From Candidatus Aenigmatarchaeota archaeon (GTDB lineage: Archaea; Aenigmatarchaeota; Aenigmatarchaeia; CG10238-14; SCSR01): DNA of 64,000 nt. Under the pieces are notes generated by a model. That model did no database searches. It saw only the letters and a list, made by a program, of their open reading frames with translations, and was not told where the DNA came from. The position numbers and the translations under genes were made by a program. This document shows positions 7,118-56,600 of the stretch, in pieces. Position 1 is the first letter of the stretch; every line of letters begins with the position of its first letter. Location: assembly GCA_038998335.1 (NCBI GenBank), contig JAVZHQ010000001.1, forward strand, positions 384,001 through 448,000. The letters are read 5' to 3'.

Positions 7118-7214
7118 GCGCCAGTAATCTAACCTGGTAGGATTAACTATACTAATACCAGCTTCCCAAATCTGGAATAAGCTGGGTGTCCGGGTTCAAA
7201 TCCCGGCTGGCGCA
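7118..7214 (+). tRNA. tRNA-Gly(CCC) with two short introns (~7144-7156 and 7169-7179)
   Basis: Acceptor GCGCCAG/CTGGCGC, T arm CCGGG-TTCAAAT-CCCGG, anticodon stem CCAGC/GCTGG; removing 13 + 11 nt gives a 73-nt tRNA. Confidence 0.88.
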
Positions 7215-21023: not shown

Positions 21024-21132
21024 GCTGGGATAGTTCAGCGGTTAGAACGCGGCGCTCATAAGCTTTATGAGCTTTGAAAAAATGATGAAAGATGAAACGC
21101 CGAAGTCCCGGGTTCAAATCCCGGTCCCAGCA
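21024..21132 (+). tRNA. tRNA-Met(CAT), elongator type, with 36-nt anticodon-loop intron
   Basis: Acceptor GCTGGGA/TCCCAGC, anticodon stem CGGCG/CGCCG, CTCATAA loop after removing 36 nt (21061-21096, or 21062-21097 by BHB geometry). Confidence 0.9.
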
Positions 21133-28576: not shown

Positions 28577-30618
28577 AGAAGATGAAACTACCATAGGATA
28601 AGCTGGTCAAGAGGTCCTGGCAACAGTAGCCCACTTGGTGGATGGCTCGGCTTGGTTAGCCGAAGAAGGCCGTGCCAAGCTGCGATAAGCCTGGGTTATC
28701 CGCATGGAGGAGCTGACCCCAGGATTGCCGAATGGGATTCCTAGCCCGTTAAGGGCTATTTCGGAAGAAAAGGGAACGCGCCGAAGTGAAGCATCTTAGT
28801 AGGCGCAGGAAAAGAAATCAAACGAGATTCGGTGAGTAGGGGCGACCGAAAGCCGAACAGGACAAACCGAACTTTCTTTCGAAGAGGAAGAAAGGATGTG
28901 GAGTTACAGGACTTGGGCCTTTCCTAGCTTGCTAACCTGAAGTGAGCTGGAAAGCTCCACCATAGAGGGTGATAGTCCCGTAGGGGAAGGCAAGAAGGAA
29001 AATGCCAAGTCTCCTGAGTACCATTCCTTGGATATGGAGTGGGAATTTGGGTGGCATTAACATCCAATCCTAAATACTAACCAAGTCCGATAGCGGACTA
29101 GTATCGTGAGAGAAAGCTGAAAAGTACCGCGAAAGCGGGGTGAAAAGAGCCTGAAACCAAGTTGGGCATAGTCAGCTAGGGCATGAAAGGTGCTACTCCG
29201 AAGGAAATTCTCGCAAGAGAAGAGTACGAGGAGTAGCTTACAGTGTCCTAGCATCCGTTCTGAAAAACGGGGCAGGGAGTTTGCTCGAGTAGTGAGGTTA
29301 AGGGGTTTAAACCTCGAAGCCAAAGCGAAAGCGACAAGCCCGTAGTCTCGCAAGAGACGTGGGGCGGGGTGTGAAAGCGCCTGAAATTACTCGAGCAAGA
29401 CCCGAAGCCGGTCGATCTAATCCTGGGCAGGATGAAGTTCCTCGAAAGAGGAATGGAGGTCCGAACCGGTGCTGAGACCCAATCGCTCGGTTGACCCAGG
29501 ATTAGGGGTGAAAAGCCAATCGAGACCGGTGATAGCTGGTTCCTCCCGAAATGAGCGTCAGCTCAGCCTGGTTGGAGGTAAGCAGTAGGGTAAAGAGACT
29601 GATTGGACGGTCAAGGTGCGAAAGCATCAGCCGTCCTGTCAAACTCTGAATCTACTGCTGCCTGAGAAGACCGGAGTGAGGGTACTGGGTTAAGCTCGGT
29701 ACCCAAAAGGGGAACAACCCAACCTGGGGTTAAGATCCCTAAATGCCGGCTAAACGAAGAAGGGAGTCCAAATCCTTAGACAGCGGGGCTGTAGGCTTAG
29801 AAGCAGCCATCAGTTAAAAAGTGCGTAACAGCTTACCCGCCGAGGGTTTGGGCCCTGAAAATGGAAGGGACTAAGCCGGCTGTCGATACCCCAGACCTGC
29901 GAAAGCAGGGGGTAGGGAGGCGTTCTGCATGGGTAGAAGCTTGTTCGTGAGAACAAGTGGACCGTGCAGAATTGAAGATCCTGCCATGAGTAGCAGCATA
30001 GCTGGGTGAAAATCCCAGCCGCCTGAACCCTCAGGGTTTGCCAGCAATGTTCGTCAGCTGGCAGTTAGTCGATCCTAAGGGCGCTCTTAACCGAAGCGCT
30101 CAAAAGGGAAATCGGTTAATATTCCGATACCATGGAGGTACGTGCGGCAACGCAAGCTAGCTTTCCGACGTTTCGGGATAGGCCGACGCAAGTTAACTGC
30201 CGAAGCCTGCAGAGTCTCGTAACGAGGAGAAGCAGGTGAAAGCAGGAATAGCTCCGCGTATGCGGAGTTCGGCCGATTCCTGGAACCCGTGAAAAGGGAA
30301 GCTAGAAGGATCCTCCATGATCGTACCAAGAACCGACACAGGTAGGGTCGCTGAGAAGGCGAAGGCGTGTTGGGAGAACCCAATCCAGGGAAATCGGCAA
30401 ATTGGCCCCGTATCTTCGGTAGAAGGGGTGCCTGTTCTCTCGAAAGGGAGAACAGGTCGCAGTGACAAGGGGGAAGCGACTGTTTAACAAAAACACAGGA
30501 GACTGCTAGTCCGAAAGGATTTGTACAGTCTCTGAGGTCTGCCCAGTGCCGGTGTGTGAAACCCGGTTCCAACCGGGAGAAGCCCCGGCAAACGGCGGCG
30601 GTAACTCTGACCGTCGTA

Positions 30619-30664
30619 ACTCAGGGCGGTCATCTGATTTGATGATACGCCGCCTGGGCGACAT
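30619..30664 (+). ncRNA. 46-nt BHB intron in 23S (E. coli 1927/1928) with D'/C' motif and cis guide
   Basis: GTCG-TA|A-CTCAGG...CCTGGG-CGAC-AT|A; CTGA-T-TTGATGA inside. Confidence 0.9.
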
Positions 30665-30792
30665 AAGTAGCGTAATCCCTTGCCGTTTAATTGACGGCCC
30701 GTTCAACGGCTTAACGACTTCCCCACTGTCCTGGGTTGGGACCCAGCGAAAATGCTGTTCTGGTGAATAGGCCAGAGACCTCCGGTGGGAAA

Positions 30793-30823
<31 letters not shown>

Positions 30824-30976
30824 GCGTTGCTGTAAGGTTGAAATTGCATAGAGTAGCTGGGACTCGCTATTAGGCGCAGGCTTCGGCCGAGGCTGAGAGG
30901 AAAGTGTAACACCAGCCCTTTTCAACCTTACGGCTTACCCGTAAGGGGACAGCGTCAGATGGGCAGTTCGGCTGGG

Positions 30977-31060
30977 AGTTTAGGAGCTAGAATGAAGAGT
31001 CCCTTAAGTTATGAAAAAATGATTAAGGGCATACGGTCTGAACAGCTCCTAAACCAGCAA
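30977..31060 (+). ncRNA. 84-nt BHB intron in the 23S P-loop (2252/2253) containing a complete box C/D sRNA
   Basis: GCTG-GG|A-GTTTAGGAGCT...AGCTCCTAAAC-CAGC-AA|G; splicing restores GGCTGGGGCGG. Confidence 0.93.
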
Positions 31061-31115
31061 GCGGTACGCCCTTGGTAAGAGATCAAGGGCGCCCAAAGCT
31101 CAGCTCATCCGGGTC

Positions 31116-31212
31116 ATGTCAGAAGTTGAAGCTATGATTACACTGCTCCAGAATGATTTAAAGATGAGTATGGAGGTAGCTTATGAGCTTTCATCAACTT
31201 CTGACACCCGAA
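31116..31212 (+). ncRNA. 97-nt BHB intron in 23S (about 2306/2307) containing a complete box C/D sRNA
   Basis: CGGG-TC|A-TGTCAGAAGTTGA...TCAACTTCTGACA-CCCG-AA|A; splicing restores CGGGTCAGAAATCC. Confidence 0.92.
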
Positions 31213-31384
31213 AGAAATCCGGAGTAGAGTGTAAGCGCAAAAGCTGGGTTGATTGGATCCCGCAAAGCGAGGGATCCAAGGGCGAAAGCCTGGGCTAGCG
31301 ATACATCGGTTCGCCTTAATGGCGGCCGGTGGTATCAGAAAAGCTACCTCGGGGATAATGGGCCCGTGGCCGGTGAAAGCCCAC

Positions 31385-31427
31385 AGCTCAGGGGTTTTCA
31401 TCCCACTCGATAGCGACGAGCGGGTAA
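31385..31427 (+). ncRNA. 43-nt BHB intron in 23S (about 2477/2478)
   Basis: GCCC-AC|A-GCTC...GAGC-GGGT-AA|A; splicing restores AGCCCACATTGACCC. Confidence 0.88.
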
Positions 31428-31526
31428 ATTGACCCGGCGCGTTGGTGCGTCGCTGTCGGCTCCCCCCCTCCTGGCCGTGCAGTAGCGGCCAAGGGTACAG
31501 GTGCCCACTGGTTAAAGGGGGACGTT

Positions 31527-31560
<34 letters not shown>

Positions 31561-31958
31561 GCTATCTACCGGAGGTGCTGGCTGTCTGACCGGAAGGATG
31601 GGTGAGTACGAAAGGAACACCCATCCGTGGCCTCTGGTCTACCGGTTGTTCATCGCACAGCCGGGCAGCTAAGCCATAGCGGATAAGTCCTGAAGGCATC
31701 TAAGGACGAAACCGCCCGGGAAAATAGGCAGCCAATTGCTCTGCTATTCCGCAAGGAACGGTAGAGCAACGAGGGCTCTCCTAGACGAGGAGGTTGATAG
31801 GAAGGGGGTGTACGCGCCAAGCTTTCGAGCGAGGCGTTCAGCCCGCCTTTCCTAATCGCCCGAGGTTGCCAGGACTTGATAAGCAGCTTATCCTATGGTA
31901 GTTTCAAAAGTTTTTTTCTAAAATAAAAAAGTTAAACTTTTTTTTCTTAATTTAATTT

Positions 31959-48988: not shown

Positions 48989-49231
48989 ATGGAAAAGGTT
49001 TCAAGAGAGGTAAGAAAAAAAGGTTACTTGCTTTTTAGGAAGAATAAAGTAAAAAAGGAACTGGAAACCGAAAAAAGAATACACTTTAAAGTTGAAGGTG
49101 AAACAGAAATTCATTCTGTAATTTTCGACAAAATAAAGAAAAAATTCTTTTGTGATTGTTCTTATTTCTCGCTTCATGAGAAAAAATGCTCTCATATAAT
49201 TGCTTGCGAACTATTTTTGAAGCAAGCCTAG
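48989..49231 (+). CDS. SWIM zinc-finger protein
   Basis: CDC...CSH. Confidence 0.75.
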   Translation: MEKVSREVRKKGYLLFRKNKVKKELETEKRIHFKVEGETEIHSVIFDKIKKKFFCDCSYFSLHEKKCSHIIACELFLKQA

Positions 49232-50544
49232 GGTAGCATTCTTGTCACATATCTTGGAAATAAAACTACCTCTTTTATATTTTTCATATCAAGTAACTTC
49301 ATGGTTAACCTTTCTATTCCTAGGCTAAAACCTCCGTGAGGAGGCACGCCATACCTAAAAACTTCTGTAAACCACCTTAAATTCTCTAAGTTTAGACCTT
49401 TCTCTTTTATCTGAGCAATTATTTTTTCATACCTATGCTCTCTTTGACCTCCTGAAGAAAGTTCTAGACCTTTAAAAATCAAATCAACACTTCTTGCCCA
49501 TTCAGGCTCTTCATCAACTCGCATAACATAAAATGGTTTAATAGAAAAAGGAAATCTATTAACAAAGAAGAAATCAGCCTTGTACTTTTCTTTTACGTAA
49601 TCTGTTAAAATTTTTGTAGATTCTTTATCTAAGTCTTGATTTCTGGGTAATTTTCTTCCATATTCTTCTAGTATTTCATAAATTTTTGGAAACCTTAACT
49701 CTGGAAAAGGAAGCTTAGGTACTTCTATTTCTTTATTAAGAATTTTTAGCTCTTTTTCACATTCTTCTACAACTTTTTTTATTCCAGCTACACAAAGTCT
49801 TTCTTCCAATTTTATCATATCGCTTTCGTCTTTCATGAAAGCAAACTCAGGAGCAATTGTTCTGTGCTCAGCTAAATGGGTTGGCTGATCAGAAGGTTCA
49901 GCCCTCCAGCTAGGTCCTAAGTCGTAGATTTTCTCAAAACCAGCAGCTATTAACAATTGCCTATGCAGCTGAGGATCTTGTCTTAAAAAAGCTTCTTTTC
50001 CGAAGAAATCTATCTTAAAAACTTCTGCCCCACCTTCTGAAATTCCGCCTATTATACTTGGTGTCCAAACTCTTAGGAAACCTTCTTTTTTGAGAAATTC
50101 CTCCATTCCCTCTTGCAATTTTGCTTGAATTATAAAAATAGCTTGATTTTCCCTTCTTCTCAAGTCAAGAGAACGCCATTCAAGTCTTGTTTCTAGGGTT
50201 GCTGGAGTAACATTCCTTGGGTCTAAAGGCAAAGGAGCTTGCGCTTTGCTTATAACCTCAATCTCAGAAGGAATTATTTCTATTCCTTCTTTTGCTATCT
50301 TGCTTCTTACAACTTTACCTTTAACACTTAAAACATCTTCTTGATGTAAACTTTTGTAAATCTCAAGAATTTTTTCAGGAACTTTTTTCCTTGGCGCAGT
50401 AACTTGAACTATACCTTCTCTATCTCTTAGTAAAAGAAAGTTTATTCCTCCTATCAGTCTTACATCATGACACCATCCAGAAACAATTACTTCTTTTCCT
50501 ATGTTTTTTTTCAGCTCGCTTGTGTAATGAGTTCTTTTAAGCAT
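49228..50544 (-). CDS. aspS: Aspartate--tRNA ligase (archaeal type)
   Basis: OB-fold FLLLRDREG, SGGQREH, PPHGGFSLGIERL, FPR. Confidence 0.93.
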   Translation of the reverse strand: MLKRTHYTSELKKNIGKEVIVSGWCHDVRLIGGINFLLLRDREGIVQVTAPRKKVPEKILEIYKSLHQEDVLSVKGKVVRSKIAKEGIEIIPSEIEVISKAQAPLPLDPRNVTPATLETRLEWRSLDLRRRENQAIFIIQAKLQEGMEEFLKKEGFLRVWTPSIIGGISEGGAEVFKIDFFGKEAFLRQDPQLHRQLLIAAGFEKIYDLGPSWRAEPSDQPTHLAEHRTIAPEFAFMKDESDMIKLEERLCVAGIKKVVEECEKELKILNKEIEVPKLPFPELRFPKIYEILEEYGRKLPRNQDLDKESTKILTDYVKEKYKADFFFVNRFPFSIKPFYVMRVDEEPEWARSVDLIFKGLELSSGGQREHRYEKIIAQIKEKGLNLENLRWFTEVFRYGVPPHGGFSLGIERLTMKLLDMKNIKEVVLFPRYVTRMLP

Positions 50545-50548
50545 TTTC

Positions 50549-50794
50549 TCACAAAGCATAGAGGGTAAACCAACTTAACAACCAAAATAAAATAAACGTA
50601 ACAAAGCTGTTATAAACTAAAACTCTTAATTTAACTTGTTTTTTGAAAAGAGGAAGCAAAACAAAGTAAACTATAAAAGGAAACGTTAAAGAAAAAATAA
50701 TGCTTCCGAAACTTTTAGAGAAATAATCTGAAATTACTCCACAAAAAATACCAGCTACTAAAAAAGCTATTGTGATTTTTTTAATCGGTTTCAT
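50549..50794 (-). CDS. Small membrane protein (about 3 TM)
   Basis: Hydrophobic helices; overlaps rnhB stop. Confidence 0.6.
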   Translation of the reverse strand: MKPIKKITIAFLVAGIFCGVISDYFSKSFGSIIFSLTFPFIVYFVLLPLFKKQVKLRVLVYNSFVTFILFWLLSWFTLYAL

Positions 50795-51586
50795 CTTCTC
50801 CCTCTTTACAGTTTACTTTTTTGGAAAAGAAATCTTTTATTTTTTTCTGCCAAGATTTCTCGCCCAAAACTTCATCTTTTACCCATGGTTGTAACTTTTT
50901 TCCTTCTTCAAAGAGTTTTGTAGCTACGCTTTCCACAGTGTCCCAATGCCACCTTATAAAATTTGGTTTTTCTTTGTATTCTGTTAAAACTTTTTCTAAA
51001 AACTTTATAGTTCTGTAATCATGGCTATAGCCTACACCAAAATCAAAACCAACTTTTAACTTTAACTCTTCTATAGCTTTATCTCTTTCAACCTTAGCTA
51101 TTATCGAGGCAGCTGAAACTACAGGATATGTTTCATCTGCGTAATTTTCAACTATAAGCTTCAAATCTTTTCTCCTTAGATTTTCAGCAATTAATTTCTC
51201 AAACCTTTTGTTTTTAGAATGGTTAGTATTGCCTAAAGCATCTATGTAGATTACTTTAGCGTCTATCATATTTATTATTTCAGCCATCTTCATAGCTTCT
51301 ATTCTATCTAAATTTATTTTCTTCTTCATGTAACTGTTAATCCTACAGGCTGGAACTCTTAAAACTACCATGCTCTTTGCTATTTTTTCTATAATTTTAG
51401 CTAACTCTTCCCTTCTTTTTGGCGAGAGCTCTTTTGAATCTTTAACCCCTAAACTCTTCAACTTTTTTTCATCTTTCCTTTCTATTACCAAACCACAAAT
51501 TACCATTGGCCCTATAAGAGCTCCGCGGCCTGCTTGACGTTGCAAAAAGCAATTTCGTCTATGCCGCAGATTAGAATTTTCTTCAC
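50781..51586 (-). CDS. rnhB: Ribonuclease HII, join(51586-51554, 51533-50781), interrupted by a 20-nt BHB intron
   Basis: Spliced frame reads MKKILICGIDE/AGRGALIGPM (261 aa); VKDSK, VSAASIIAKVERD. Confidence 0.9.
51534..51553 (-). other. Putative mRNA intron with BHB splice motif
   Basis: GACG-AA|A-TTGC-TTTTT-GCAA-CGTC-AA|G on the minus strand. Confidence 0.85.
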
Positions 51587-51605
51587 CCCCTTTAAATTAA
51601 TTAAT

Positions 51606-51977
51606 TTATTTGTTTCTTTTAATAAACCAATGTTTGATTCCAATTTTTAAAATCATAAAATCTTCGAGCAAATCCCAAGCTTGATGTAAAACTAATGAAA
51701 GAAAAATTAATTTTAAAGGGAAACTAACTAAAATTGTTAAAAAAATGAAAAACAATAAAAATAAAAAGTTATGAAAGAGATATCTTCTTGGTTTGTTAAA
51801 TTTTATTATTTCATTAAAACCCTTTCTTAAAATTGTTGGCAAATGGTCAAAATCGATAATAATAGTTGAGAGAAAAACTAGAAAGGATAGAAACAAATCA
51901 AGCTTAAACAATGCTATTATCATGAACGCTAGAGAAAAATGAACGAACCAATGAAAAATTATATACCTGAAACTCAT
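51606..51977 (-). CDS. Membrane-bound metal-dependent hydrolase-like protein
   Basis: H..., DFDH, R..FH, H...D motifs with TM helices. Confidence 0.7.
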   Translation of the reverse strand: MSFRYIIFHWFVHFSLAFMIIALFKLDLFLSFLVFLSTIIIDFDHLPTILRKGFNEIIKFNKPRRYLFHNFLFLLFFIFLTILVSFPLKLIFLSLVLHQAWDLLEDFMILKIGIKHWFIKRNK

Positions 51978-51979
51978 AA

Positions 51980-52453
51980 CTAAACCTTTAAAATAATTAG
52001 CAAGACGAAAATAATGCTTACCAAAAGACTTGGTATATGCGATCTTTTGTGAGTTTTAAGGTAAGAAGGATCTTCTAACAAATAACCAACTGGCAATGAA
52101 CCTTTTATTTTTTTCTTAATTAAGGGAGGTAATATATAAATTCCGTTTTTATCTAAAATGTCTAAAAATAAATGGGCAAACAAAGGAATGAAAATTAACT
52201 CTACAGGTAAAAAGAAAAGGAAAGGTATTGAAACGATTAAAAGGCCTAAAATGCTATGAAACCAGCTTCTTGGCCTGTAAGCTAGATGAAGCAGTGAAGG
52301 AATTTCTATAGGAAGCTTTTTTCTTTTATCATACAAGTAGCCGATAACATGATCTAAATCAAATATACAGCTAAAAAATAAAGGCCAGTAATTCTCGAAT
52401 TTTATACTCAAGTACAAACCGACTATAAAATGAGCAAGTATGTCCATTTTCAC
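51980..52453 (-). CDS. Membrane-bound metal-dependent hydrolase (YdjM-like)
   Basis: AH, DLDH, RSWFHS, HLFLD. Confidence 0.75.
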   Translation of the reverse strand: MKMDILAHFIVGLYLSIKFENYWPLFFSCIFDLDHVIGYLYDKRKKLPIEIPSLLHLAYRPRSWFHSILGLLIVSIPFLFFLPVELIFIPLFAHLFLDILDKNGIYILPPLIKKKIKGSLPVGYLLEDPSYLKTHKRSHIPSLLVSIIFVLLIILKV

Positions 52454-52506
52454 CCTTAATTTCTTTATTTTAAAAGAAAAAAAACTTATTCCTTTAATAT
52501 TATTTT

Positions 52507-52968
52507 ATGCTAGAAGAAATAAAGACAAAAAATTTGGAAGAAGAGCTTAGATCTTTGGATTGGAGAAATTTTGAGAAAGTAGTACAAGAAATTTTTGAAG
52601 CTAATGGATTTAGAGTTAAAAGAAACTTTAGGTTCAAAACTAAAAAAAGGTATGAAATAGACATAATAGCAATAAAGGATAATTTTAATTTTTGTGTGGA
52701 TTGCAAACGCTTAGGAAAAGGTAGATATAAAAAAAGTGAAATTGTAAAAGCAATAAAGAAACAAGAAGAAAGAAGCAAAGAACTTAAAAAGTTTTTAAAG
52801 ACAAACCTTTTAGCAAAAGATTCTTTAAAAATAATATCTGAAAAGTTTTATCCTATGTTAGTTACTCTTTTTGAGGAAGAAATAGTAAAGGAAAACGAAA
52901 CTTTTGTTGTGCCAATTTGGAAGTTAAACTCTTTTTTAAACGAGGTAGAAAATTACATCTCGATCTAG
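52507..52968 (+). CDS. PD-(D/E)xK restriction-endonuclease-like protein (Mrr/NERD-like)
   Basis: WRNFE...GF.V, EIDIIA, VDCK. Confidence 0.75.
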   Translation: MLEEIKTKNLEEELRSLDWRNFEKVVQEIFEANGFRVKRNFRFKTKKRYEIDIIAIKDNFNFCVDCKRLGKGRYKKSEIVKAIKKQEERSKELKKFLKTNLLAKDSLKIISEKFYPMLVTLFEEEIVKENETFVVPIWKLNSFLNEVENYISI

Positions 52969-53078
52969 AAATCAGCTTTATAAAGTCTTTTTTTTCTTTT
53001 CTTATAAACGTTTCGAAAAGTATATAAGGAAGTTATTTAAATACTTTTACTCTTATATTTAAGAGTATAGGTGAGAAG

Positions 53079-53636
53079 ATGACTGATTTTAAAATAAGAA
53101 TAGAAAACATAGTTGCTTCTGCTTCACTTGGAGTGAATGTAACTTTGGAAAAAATTGTATCAAAACTAGAAGGAATGGAGTATGAACCTGAGCAGTTTCC
53201 TGGTTTAGTTTACAGGGTAAAAAATCCTAAGGCTGCTGCTTTAATTTTCGGTTCAGGGAAGATTGTTTGCACAGGAGCAAGAAGTGTAGAAGATGTGAAT
53301 ACAGTAATAAAAAAAGTAATAAAAGTAGTAGAGAGTACAGGAGTAAATGTTCCTAAAGGAGTTAAAGTTCAGATTGAAAACATAGTTGCTTCCGCAAAAC
53401 TTAATGCAAACTTAAATTTAGACATAATAGCTTTTAACCTAGAAAATTCTGAGTATGAACCTGAGCAGTTTCCTGGTTTAGTTTACAGGATGGACAACCC
53501 AAAAGTTGCTTTCCTTTTGTTTGGTTCAGGAAAGATTGTTTGCACAGGAGCAAGGAGCATACAAGATGTGAATACAGCAGTAAAAAAAGTGTCAAGAAAG
53601 TTGAAGGAAATTGGCGCACTAGTTAAAAGCAAGTAG
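53079..53636 (+). CDS. tbp: TATA-box binding protein
   Basis: Two repeats IENIVASA...YEPEQFPGLVYR...FGSGKIVCTGA. Confidence 0.97.
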   Translation: MTDFKIRIENIVASASLGVNVTLEKIVSKLEGMEYEPEQFPGLVYRVKNPKAAALIFGSGKIVCTGARSVEDVNTVIKKVIKVVESTGVNVPKGVKVQIENIVASAKLNANLNLDIIAFNLENSEYEPEQFPGLVYRMDNPKVAFLLFGSGKIVCTGARSIQDVNTAVKKVSRKLKEIGALVKSK

Positions 53637-53696
53637 CTTTCCGAAACATTTCAAAAATTAGAAAAATTTAATAAACTTTGAAAACAATAAAAAAGC

Positions 53697-56600
53697 GTGG
53701 AAAAGGAAAACATAATAGAAAAGTTTGCTGAGTTTCTAAGGGAAGAGTATTATAATGATTTAGTGAACGCTGTAAATGAGGGAAAAAAATCAATCTATAT
53801 CGATTTTTCTCTTTTAGATAAATTTGACCCTGAGTTGGCAGATTATTTACTTGAAAATCCTGAAGAAGTTTTGGAGTTGGCTGAAGAAGCAATAAAACAA
53901 ATTGACTTGCCTGGAGAAGCAAAGTTAAGAGTAAGAATACTAAACCTTCCAGAGAGTAGAGAAATAAGAATAAGAAATATTCGTTCAGAGCATATAGGGA
54001 AACTAATCGCAGTAGATGGAATAGTAAAGAGAGCAAGTGAAATAAGACCAGAAGTTTCAGAAGTTATATTTTCTTGCCCAGAATGCGGAAGAGAAATAAC
54101 TGTTATCCAAACAGAAAGAACTATTAGAGCTCCTGTTGAATGTGAATGTGGGAATAGAAAAGGTTTCAGAATTTTAAAGCAAAAACTTTATGACGCTAGA
54201 TGGATTGTAATAGAAGAGCCTTTTGAAATAGTCTCAGGAGAAAGACCTTCAGAAATAATGGTTTTTCTCAAGGAAGATTTGACCTCTCCAAAAATGCAGA
54301 ATAAAACTGACCCAGGTAACAGGATTAAAATAGTAGGAATACTGAAAGAATTGCCAAAAAGAGTTAAAGGAACAAGGTCAAGACAAGTTGAAATATACAT
54401 AGAAGCAAATTCTGTTGAAAGTATAGAAGTTGAGTGGGAAGAACTTGAAATAACTCCAGAAGATGAGAAAAGAATCTTAGAGCTAGCAAAAGACCCAGAA
54501 ATTTATGATAAACTTGTTAGGTCGATAGGGCCAAGTTTATACGGACTAGAAGAAGTAAAAGAAGCAATAGTTTTGCAACTTTTTGGCGGAGAGCCTCATG
54601 TTCAAAAAGATAAGTCAAGGGTTAGAGGAGATATTCACATACTTTTAATCGGAGATCCTAGTTGCTTGGTTGGGGATGAAAGAGTAGTCTTGGGTAATGG
54701 TGCTATAGCCAAGATTTCTTCCCTGGGAAAAGAACATTTACAAAAAATTGATGTTCCAGTTTATTTAGCCGAAGGATATAAACGTGGTACTGCTAAAACA
54801 TTTCATAAGTATGAATTTCAACCTGTCATAGAAATTGTTACAGAGAGTGGTAAAAGTATTAAAGGAACTTTTAATCAGCCAGTTTTAGTGAAGAAAAAAC
54901 CCGGCAAATTTGGAAAATTTAAGAGCGAGTGGAAACGTTTAGATGAGATAAAAATTGGTGATGAAATAAGGGTTATCAACTGGATTCCATGTAGAATTTA
55001 TAAATATGTAGAAACTGGATGGAGTTTGAAAAGTTCAACCAAAAGGAAAAAAATTAAAGTACCTAAGATTCTGGACGAAAAGTTAGCAAGTGTACTTGGT
55101 TATTTGTTAGCAGACGGTTATGTACAAAAATACAGAGTAGGCTGTGCTTTCAATTATGAAGAATTAGACTTATTACCGAAAATGAAAAAGCTTTTTGAAG
55201 AAATTTTTGGTATAAAACCTAGGTTTGAATATCATAAAGAAAAAAATGGTACTAACGTAGAAATGGTTTTCAATTCTATCGAGCTTGCTGAAATTTTACA
55301 ATTTTTGAAAAATAAAAGGGTTCCCGATATGATACTATCATCAAAAAATAGTGTTGTTGCTGCTTTTCTTTCTTGGCTTTATGATGGTGACGGTTCTGTA
55401 ATTTCGGAAGGAAGAGGTAAAAATGGTATACTCTACAAAGCAAAAGATATAGAATTGCTACGTGACATTCAAATCTTATTGTTAAGATTTGGTATACATT
55501 CCCAAATATACGGAAATAATTTGATAATAAGACAAGCAAATTCTATAATAAAATTTGCCAATTCTATTGGTTTTAATTCCAAAAAAAAGAAAGAAAAACT
55601 ACAAAAACTTGTAGAAAATGTAGAAAAACTTAAAAGAAAAAGACATAATAAAAGATGGGAAAGAATAGTTAAAATTATTTACCATCCTCCAGAGAGTGTG
55701 TATGATATAGAAGTTCCTGTACATCATAAATTTGTGGCAAATGGTATAGTTTGTCATAACACAGCAAAAAGTGCTTTGATGAAGGTAGTTTCAAGTCTGA
55801 TTCCTCGCGGACGATATGTATCGGGAAAAGGAGTATCCATAGATTATGACGATCCTGTAATTTACAAAGAAAACGGATTAATCAAAACAGATATAATAGG
55901 TAGGTTTTGTGACAAGTTCTATAAGCAGGGTGAAGTAGGCTTTGTTAAAGTAAAAGGAATAGAAGTTCCTGTTTTTGATCCAACCACTTTTAAAATTTCG
56001 TGGAAACCTGTAACTTATATTTTTAGGCATCCAGCCGAAGAACCGTTACTTAAGTTAACACTCAGGACAGGTAGAGAGATAAGAGTAACACTAGGTCATT
56101 CAATTTATACTCTTGATAAGGGAGAAATCGTAACTAAGCGGGCTGATGAACTAAAGGTTGGAGATTTTATTCTTATACCTTCTCGAATTCCTCCTAACAA
56201 TAAAATAGTTAAAAAAATTATTGTTGCTGATTTAATTAAAAATCACCCTGAGATAAAGCTAAGAACTCTTAAAAAATTTCCAAAAGAGATAAAAGTTAAC
56301 GGCGAGCTTATGAGGCTGATTGGCTACTACATTGCTGAAGGTTCTTTGAATGAAAGTGGAGAACATTGGAAAGTGAGGTTTGATGTCGGAGAAAAAGATA
56401 ATGAAATTATTGAGGATATAAAACGTATTGTAAAGAAATTGTTCGGGCTTGAAGTGAAAGAATATAAAAAGAAAAATTCTAAGGGTAAAGCTCTAGAGAT
56501 TAACTCCAAGTTACTAGTGTTGATTTTTAAAGAAATCTTACAACTCGGAAAAAGTGCTAAGATGAAAAAAATCCCCCCAATAGTTTTTAACACATCAAGC

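Follow-up and report, generated by a model that had tools for sequence, protein, structure and literature searches.

A predicted 20-nt splicing-endonuclease intron at the catalytic residues of the RNase HII gene of an Aenigmatarchaeota archaeon

The window analysed here is a stretch of 64,000 nucleotides (nt) from a hot-spring Candidatus Aenigmatarchaeota archaeon (contig JAVZHQ010000001.1, positions 384,001 to 448,000), and its rnhB gene, which codes for RNase HII, is interrupted by an insert of 20 nt. Read on the minus strand from 51553 to 51534, the insert, ATTGCTTTTTGCAACGTCAA, stands between GGC ATA GAC GAA and GCA GGC CGC GGA, which match base for base the GIDE and AGRG flanks that an earlier note on this DNA had claimed for it. 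Exact excision of the 20 nt joins GIDE to AGRG, and both the RNase HII frame and the catalytic Asp and Glu are regained. Left unspliced, the frame that opens at the GTG at 51586 runs for 24 codons and then stops, as the note had read it and as the list of open reading frames (ORFs) bears out, where it appears as a 43-aa ORF (51512..51643). The long ORF, 50781..51545, comprises 254 aa and takes as its start a TTG within the insert. The 3' exon, when its translation is begun at 51533, gives a match to the Pfam profile RNase_HII (PF01351) with an E value of 9.9e-43 over profile positions 6-199 of 199, and the solved archaeal RNase HII chains in PDB align to it from their own residue 9. Because the profile match begins at position 6 and the PDB chains at residue 9, the 3' exon is without GIDE, and the further statement that the annotated protein lacks the catalytic Asp and Glu was likewise correct. 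The missing GIDE residues are coded by the short upstream frame; the full catalytic domain of PF01351, with the N-terminal Asp-Glu of GIDEAGRG, is complete only once the 20 nt have been removed.

The minimum free energy (MFE) fold of 51515-51580 has an energy of -21.4 kcal/mol (z -3.15), equalled by 2 of 200 shuffles. It contains an 8-bp helix, UCUGCGGC/GCCGCGGA, that pairs the two exons with each other, a 4-bp helix between GACG of the exon and CGUC of the intron, an AAA bulge and a hairpin, UUGC-UUUUU-GCAA, that is stacked on the central helix (Table 1). The 5' splice site is thus a canonical bulge, with the 4-bp central helix on one side and the inner hairpin on the other. When tested for the bulge-helix-bulge motif (BHB), either as hBHBh' or in a relaxed form (HBh', hBH, BHL), the insert falls into the relaxed class. 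A scan of the window against Rfam at the gathering threshold returned rRNAs and tRNAs only, with no match to a group I or group II ribozyme, and this result together with the 20-nt size rules out a self-splicing group I or group II intron.

Table 1. Coordinates, within the window, of the parts of the interrupted rnhB gene and of its predicted intron
Feature	Position	Strand	Basis or remark
Shine-Dalgarno-like GGGGGTGA	51583..51590	-	upstream of 5' exon; GTG 51586-51584 lies inside; GGTGA conserved in relatives
5' exon, ...ILICGIDE with catalytic Asp and Glu	51554..51586	-	counted from GTG 51586; true start may be ATT 51577
Outer exon-exon helix, 5' strand UCUGCGGC	51563..51570	-	MFE fold; flank duplex energies
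Central 4-bp helix, exonic strand GACG	51556..51559	-	MFE fold; alleles; exon-intron compensation
5' three-base bulge AA|A, predicted cut 51554/51553	51553..51555	-	MFE fold; alleles
20-nt intron (predicted)	51534..51553	-	sequence; inserts of relatives; DNA contigs; covariation
Inner hairpin UUGC-UUUUU-GCAA (helix h')	51540..51552	-	MFE fold; 4/4 pairs change on both sides in 19 sequences
Central helix, intronic strand CGUC	51536..51539	-	MFE fold; alleles; covariation
3' splice-site bases AA|G in 3 x 6 internal loop, predicted cut 51534/51533	51533..51535	-	MFE fold; alleles
Outer exon-exon helix, 3' strand GCCGCGGA	51522..51529	-	MFE fold; flank energies; covariation
rnhB 3' exon, 250 codons and stop, begins AGRG	50781..51533	-	Pfam RNase_HII; PDB chains; dN/dS 0.06-0.07

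The GTG at 51586 is possibly not the true start of the window rnhB, for which the ATT at 51577 is a candidate. Several rnhB genes, intron-bearing or intronless, have no in-frame ATG, GTG or TTG before ILICGIDE (among loci L005, L007, L008, L010, L014, L016 and L019, the stretch compared in the window being 51575-51590). A GGTGA motif 4-8 nt upstream of an ATT, ATC or ATA is kept in the rnhB relatives, and the start codon may be non-canonical.

The relatives compared were Candidatus Aenigmatarchaeota metagenome-assembled genomes (MAGs). RNase HII was present in 40 of the 41 genomes searched, and among the 30 rnhB loci that were fetched an insert was found at the same site (site 1) in 11 and at a second site, 8 nt downstream and within the Arg codon of AGRG (site 2), in four, with 15 loci intronless. 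When all loci are pooled, site 1 is represented by 19 distinct sequences, the inserts of which are 15, 16, 17, 18, 19, 20, 22 or 23 nt long. These lengths cover all three classes modulo 3, and the 15- and 18-nt inserts, although in frame, hold stop codons. The claim that GIDE-AGRG is regained when each bulge is cut behind its second base proved true not only of the window but of all 19 distinct site-1 sequences, and the same rule restores the frame in 4/4 of the site-2 sequences first examined. Thus, the 15- and 18-nt inserts also need to be removed, because of the stop codons inside them, and one cut rule repairs all alleles.

All insert-bearing rnhB loci have a common fold. In the alignment of the 19 site-1 sequences the paired cells amount to 91.7%, compared with 82.2% after shuffling and 28-46% when the partners are slid. 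Changes on both sides of a pair occur in six of the 16 pairs, among them all four of the inner hairpin, and in 3/19 sequences a synonymous exon change from GAC to GAU is matched by a change from G to A in the intron (central helix, pair 22-44). Complementarity of the exon flanks, moreover, is confined to genes that have the intron: for their duplex, 13 alleles with the intron gave predicted energies of -9.1 to -18.9 kcal/mol and 22 intronless ones +0.6 to -5.6 kcal/mol, with zero overlap between the two ranges. The inserts at site 2 are longer (28-35 nt) and have the same geometry, with the central helices UGGG/CCCA, UGGC/GCCA, UGGG/CCUA and UGGG/CCCG. As a separate observation, the hairpin loop of seven of the 11 site-2 inserts (L086, L087 and L089-L093) contains TAAGTC, on stems that differ.

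Across the phylum, a strict site-1 pattern was present in 20 of 371 genomes, compared with 2/371 for a reversed control. Four of the site-1 matches (L070-L073), in which at most two of the four central pairs are possible, were dropped. The genomes that passed the pairing check, 17 in number, all belong to one order, 16 of them to the family of the window (its own genome included) and one to a second family. Two further carriers, G001 and G038, were missed by the pattern and seen among the fetched loci, and site 1 is carried by at least 19 of the 118 genomes of the order. A site-2 pattern was present in 11 of these 118 (control 0), and an rnhB insert at either site in at least 30. A maximum-likelihood tree was built from 45 distinct RNase HII proteins (22 intronless, 19 with site 1, four with site 2), with rejected pattern matches and identical duplicates left out. 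On this tree of a single gene, the deep branches of which are weak, nine changes of state are needed for site 1 and four for site 2, of which well-supported branches force at least six and at least two, respectively. Intronless genes are nested among intron-bearing ones, L010, for example, lying within a 100/99 clade. The tree shows repeated loss and/or gain of the rnhB inserts, similar to the pattern of the crenarchaeal cbf5 intron in the excerpt of PMC2738675 consulted. Within the window's own genome the 20-nt insert has a single exact copy and six other places at 3-4 mismatches, and the 49-nt rnhB motif is unique at up to 10 mismatches. The single exact copy and the unique motif rule out a mobile or dispersed repeat.

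Comparison of the window rnhB with the genes of four intron-bearing congeners gave dN/dS values of 0.061-0.070 (dS 0.87-1.43), an estimate by which the gene is shown to be under purifying selection. The earlier note had raised two possibilities that bear on whether the insert is a genuine intron, namely DNA without it and an intact rnhB elsewhere; both were looked for and neither was found. In the genome (1.009 Mb in nine contigs, 90% complete) profile searches gave one RNase_HII match and no type-1 RNase_H match. The insert is covered by contigs of four DNA runs from three studies and is skipped by none. A look-up of RNA runs for positions 49000-54000 returned no match. A 15.6-kb contig of run X1 covers 51000-52000 without gaps; a 150-nt contig of run X4 bridges the site with one loop base fewer, a 19-nt variant; and in runs X2 and X3 the contigs cover the insert with only 18 nt on one side. 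An Mrr_cat/NERD-type nuclease gene (153 aa, window 52507-52968, plus strand) is the neighbour of rnhB in most relatives. Within flanks of 1.5 kb it adjoins 11 of the 15 intron-bearing and 13 of the 15 intronless loci, and since it is found with or without the intron alike it is a conserved neighbour and no intron companion. Thus, a role as homing-endonuclease companion was rejected for this gene, which is present regardless of the intron.

We conclude that the 20 nt at 51534-51553 on the minus strand are very probably a relaxed BHB intron, of the type excised by the splicing endonuclease, in the rnhB coding sequence of a member of the Aenigmatarchaeota (DPANN). The central claim of the earlier note is thereby upheld, through the frame rule in 19 alleles, the covariation, the presence of both EndA and RtcB among the encoded proteins and the status of this rnhB as the only one found. 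Judging from the reading frame, the rnhB mRNA must almost certainly be cut and rejoined before active enzyme can be made, and we infer that cleavage and ligation take place in the cell. In the pre-mRNA the exon stretches UCUGCGGC and GCCGCGGA would pair and bring the splice sites close to each other. GACG of the exon and CGUC of the intron would form the 4-bp helix, with the AA|A bulge and the small hairpin on one side of it and the A-rich internal loop on the other. A single alpha4-like EndA with a DPANN-type insertion would then cut after the second base of each bulge and RtcB would ligate the exons, giving a spliced mRNA from which RNase HII could be made at full length, the catalytic Asp-Glu adjoining AGRG. 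From unspliced RNA, by contrast, only a peptide of 24 residues or an N-terminally truncated protein without the catalytic residues would result.

The splicing of mRNA is reportedly linked to hetero-oligomeric endonucleases, a link said to be drawn in the title of a 2006 study by Yoshinari. The EndA of this genome is a single ORF of 188 aa (G000:C1, L002:1474-2040, minus strand) with both Pfam domains (PF01974 and PF02778), and its nearest solved relative, with a full-length alignment at an E value of 1.5e-29, is the homotetrameric (alpha4) enzyme of M. jannaschii. No second EndA subunit was found with the N-domain up to E 1 and the catalytic domain up to 0.001, limits that leave room for a very divergent beta subunit, and EndA is apparently an alpha4-like single-subunit enzyme. 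Compared with the M. jannaschii enzyme it has a 6-residue insertion directly before the catalytic His, and the ARMAN-2 enzyme is likewise longer at the same place. The genome has one RtcB, the gene of which is itself interrupted by an 18-nt insert (see below). An ORF of 141 aa (L002:2832-3257, minus strand), which lies some 0.8 kb away from that of EndA, contains a stretch that resembles the LAGLIDADG homing-endonuclease motif.

It should be emphasized, however, that several observations weigh against the proposal of a BHB intron in rnhB. The fold that the earlier note had drawn is borne out only in part: the GACG/CGUC helix, the AAA bulge and the inner hairpin are all in the MFE fold, but AA|G does not form a clean 3-nt bulge. 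This 3' site, after the central helix, belongs to an internal loop (3 x 6) in which AUA faces AAGCAG, and the motif is thus a relaxed BHB rather than the clean two-bulge form. In allele L013 the central helix contains an A.C mismatch. None of 500 shuffles reached the observed pairing of 91.7%, a figure that overstates independence and is no probability, as the 19 sequences compared share kinship. BHB-like shapes are frequent in this AT-rich genome (33% G+C), with 24,440 of them in 1 Mb in a loose scan. Shape alone is thus weak evidence; the insert is placed beyond chance by the way in which its removal restores the motif exactly, combined with its being conserved and covarying in relatives. 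The final point concerns the enzyme. In the portion of PMC5829648 consulted, alpha4 enzymes are said to have been regarded as cutting canonical motifs only, relaxed motifs requiring enzymes that bear a 'specific loop'; the same portion describes DPANN alpha4 enzymes with an extra 'L3' loop that co-occur with heavily disrupted tRNA genes. The 6-residue insertion of the present EndA may correspond to the L3 loop. Splicing of the rnhB insert as proposed would require that an EndA of the single-subunit, alpha4-like kind accept relaxed motifs in mRNA for cleavage.

It could be argued that the insert is an artefact of assembly or sequencing, as the window comes from a MAG. This is scarcely conceivable, however, given that contigs of four DNA runs cover the insert and that 19 distinct alleles occur in separately assembled genomes. 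Nor does it seem at all probable that rnhB is a pseudogene, or a gene killed by a small insertion in which the hairpin is incidental. The annotated 254-aa ORF, without the catalytic Asp and Glu, has the look of such a gene, but a dN/dS of 0.06-0.07 and the fact that it is the sole RNase H found in the genome argue against its decay. Indeed the insert is kept in at least 30 of the 118 genomes of the order, with helices that covary and lengths that change while obeying the splice rule. A further proposal is that the mRNA retains the insert, with which the ribosome copes by bypass, frameshifting or read-through. In programmed bypass as known from T4 gene 60, the stretch skipped is flanked by a take-off codon and a landing codon that match. 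The hairpin just 3' of the last codon of the 5' exon and the early stop in the insert of some alleles are in keeping with recoding, but the inserts (15-23 nt) fall into every length class modulo 3 and two stops occur in some of the in-frame alleles, such that each allele would need a recoding event of its own. For bypass the take-off codon would be GAA and the last insert codons are CAA, TAA or TGA, the landing match being absent; frameshifting would place the extra residues inside GIDE-AGRG; and the covariation follows the geometry of a BHB, exon-intron pairs included. Ribosomal recoding is therefore highly unlikely.

The last alternative is a variant of the BHB-intron reading and not its opposite. 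In eukaryotes, the HAC1 and XBP1 mRNAs contain a short coding intron that is cut at stem-loops by IRE1, after which the ends are joined by RtcB, in a stress-regulated switch of frame. The rnhB insert resembles this system in being a short intron in coding sequence that, as predicted, would be cut by a protein endonuclease at stem-loops and sealed by RtcB; it differs in that the endonuclease would be EndA in place of IRE1, the stress-regulated frame switch being a feature of HAC1/XBP1. The intron may thus be real and its splicing conditional, with the unspliced RNA as the default state in which rnhB is off and with EndA and RtcB as the switch. We regard this as unlikely. Each of the four introns found in this genome (in rnhB and in the three genes described below) lies close to the 5' end and only a few codons from an active-site motif, so that unspliced RNA would give nothing active, and the rtcB intron would couple the supply of ligase to ligase activity. 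Regulation, however, is conjectural, close relatives are intronless (15 of the 30 rnhB loci, and rtcB in G001 and G005), and the patchy tree fits a tolerated and repeatedly lost element better than a conserved switch.

The proposal of a spliced BHB intron in rnhB can be set beside known archaeal systems. The excerpt of PMC2738675 (Yokobori 2009) describes a BHB intron in the cbf5 pre-mRNA of Crenarchaeota, the patchy distribution of which implies loss in some lineages. The rnhB insert is similar to this intron in being a short endonuclease-type element in coding sequence, at catalytic residues and patchy in occurrence, and it is because of this placement that introns of the cbf5 type and that of rnhB must be removed for active enzyme to be made. 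It differs in its host gene and phylum (Aenigmatarchaeota, DPANN), in having two alternative sites 8 nt apart, in an EndA that is single-subunit and alpha4-like, with no (alpha-beta)2 enzyme found, and in that its splicing is predicted. Since gene and phylum differ and the endonuclease is apparently single-subunit, the rnhB intron is not a member of the cbf5 case. A BHB intron in the 5' untranslated region (UTR) of the Haloferax volcanii HVO_1309 mRNA was confirmed in vivo and in vitro, according to the part of PMC7714728 consulted. Like it, the rnhB insert would be a case in which the archaeal splicing endonuclease acts on an mRNA instead of a tRNA or rRNA, but it lies in coding sequence rather than in an untranslated leader. 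With the non-canonical mini-introns of archaeal tRNAs (HBh', hBH and BHL, as treated in the portion of PMC5829648 cited above) the insert shares the size class, the relaxed motif and the presumed enzymes. In contrast with these, its host is an mRNA, the helix strands in the exons are also constrained by the protein that they code for, and removal must be exact to the base because the reading frame must hold.

Within the part of PMC7714728 (2020) consulted, cbf5 is the sole archaeal mRNA reported with a BHB intron, beside that paper's own 5'-UTR case, and full-text literature searches returned no BHB intron for rnhB, nor any for coding genes of DPANN archaea; the one paper in which both RNase HII and BHB motifs are named treats them in places unconnected with each other. 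On the sequence evidence, rnhB would be a second, well-supported host gene for a BHB intron in coding sequence, with two sites, dozens of natural alleles and a clear covariation of exon with intron. Besides rnhB, the 1-Mb genome offers rtcB, fbp and also cbf5, where the intron falls in the same catalytic-Asp codon as in Crenarchaeota. Gene callers mislabel such genes as truncated or as pseudogenes, and metabolic reconstructions of uncultured archaea are distorted as a result.

The suggestion that other apparently broken genes of this lineage may be spliced is supported by inserts of like build in these three genes of the same genome, all outside the window, for which splicing is again predicted. 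The insert of rtcB (G000:C1:120826-120843, plus strand, equivalent to L003:1576-1593) is 18 nt long, contains TAA twice in frame, stands between HFGY and GFPIGG and has the same architecture as that of rnhB. It is present in five of the 22 readable genomes of relatives, in four versions of which the inner helices differ yet pair, and two congeners (G001 and G005) have an intronless rtcB. An intron in the mRNA of the ligase itself raises a question both of bootstrapping and of regulation, and it offers a tractable system for studying the gain, movement and loss of protein-spliced coding introns. In one relative (L116, G011:C49, near position 1468) rtcB is broken at the same motif, GFP|IGGV, by a long open insertion, the end of which resembles the C-terminus of an intein; this would suggest that the conserved rtcB site attracts different kinds of intervening sequence. 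The cbf5 insert (G000:C1:284122-284133, minus strand, in L075) comprises 12 nt with an in-frame TGA, splits the catalytic-Asp codon of GTLDP and is of the bulge-helix-loop form, with an exon-exon helix of 15 bp. One of its two equivalent drawings coincides exactly with the point of the crenarchaeal intron, as given in the excerpt of PMC2738675. It occurs in 7/26 genomes, namely the six genomes of the genus without exception and one genome of another family, in which the intron compensates for two synonymous changes in exon sequence. The fructose-1,6-bisphosphatase gene, fbp (PF01950), has a 23-nt insert (G000:C1:46651-46673, plus strand, equivalent to L079:89-111) that is a fully canonical hBHBh' and splits the gene after about 15 codons. 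The downstream part matches PF01950 from position 13 of 361, and the short upstream frame opens with ATG.

A genome-wide scan that combined BHB motifs with the restoration of ORFs did turn up fbp, but its noise was too high for a count. The 24,440 structural candidates of the loose scan fell to 4,481 after a first ORF filter, while a stricter scan gave 378, or 79 once the downstream frame was required to be closed upstream. Ranked by the energy of the outer helix, cbf5 is first among these 79, rtcB sixth, rnhB eighth and fbp 22nd. Of six candidates examined further, three were rejected as false positives inside intact ORFs (PEP-utilizers_C, AMP-binding and MFS), another, L077, has no family match, and fbp was upheld. 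Only tentatively, and with considerable doubt, can it be suggested that Aenigmatarchaeota, and perhaps DPANN widely, run a small EndA/RtcB mRNA-splicing programme at active-site codons of rnhB, cbf5, fbp and rtcB. Were this true, ligase activity would feed back on ligase synthesis and would gate enzymes of DNA repair, RNA modification and gluconeogenesis. It would represent an archaeal counterpart of IRE1/RtcB splicing, and protein-spliced coding introns would be far older and commoner than the cbf5 case suggests.

A few minor observations concern other candidate intervening sequences. One candidate of the scan, a BHB-like element of 23 nt (G000:C6:4552-4574, minus strand, L080), lies just upstream of a 714-aa HsdR_N/N6-methylase ORF. 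The first Pfam domain of this ORF begins at profile position 38 of 110, and the element may be a further intron or a chance match. Within the window, an intron-bearing tRNA-Met(CAU) at 21024-21132 (plus strand) has an insertion of about 36-38 nt with a C-box-like ATGATGA, and an intron-bearing tRNA gene at 7118-7214 (plus strand) is interrupted twice, by about 18 nt and by about 15 nt. Both were missed by ARAGORN, and their folds give no simple BHB drawing. The large-subunit rRNA gene at 28614-31875 (plus strand) has a length of 3,262 nt, the model having 2,987 positions, and the roughly 275 extra bases may be the introns mentioned in the earlier note.

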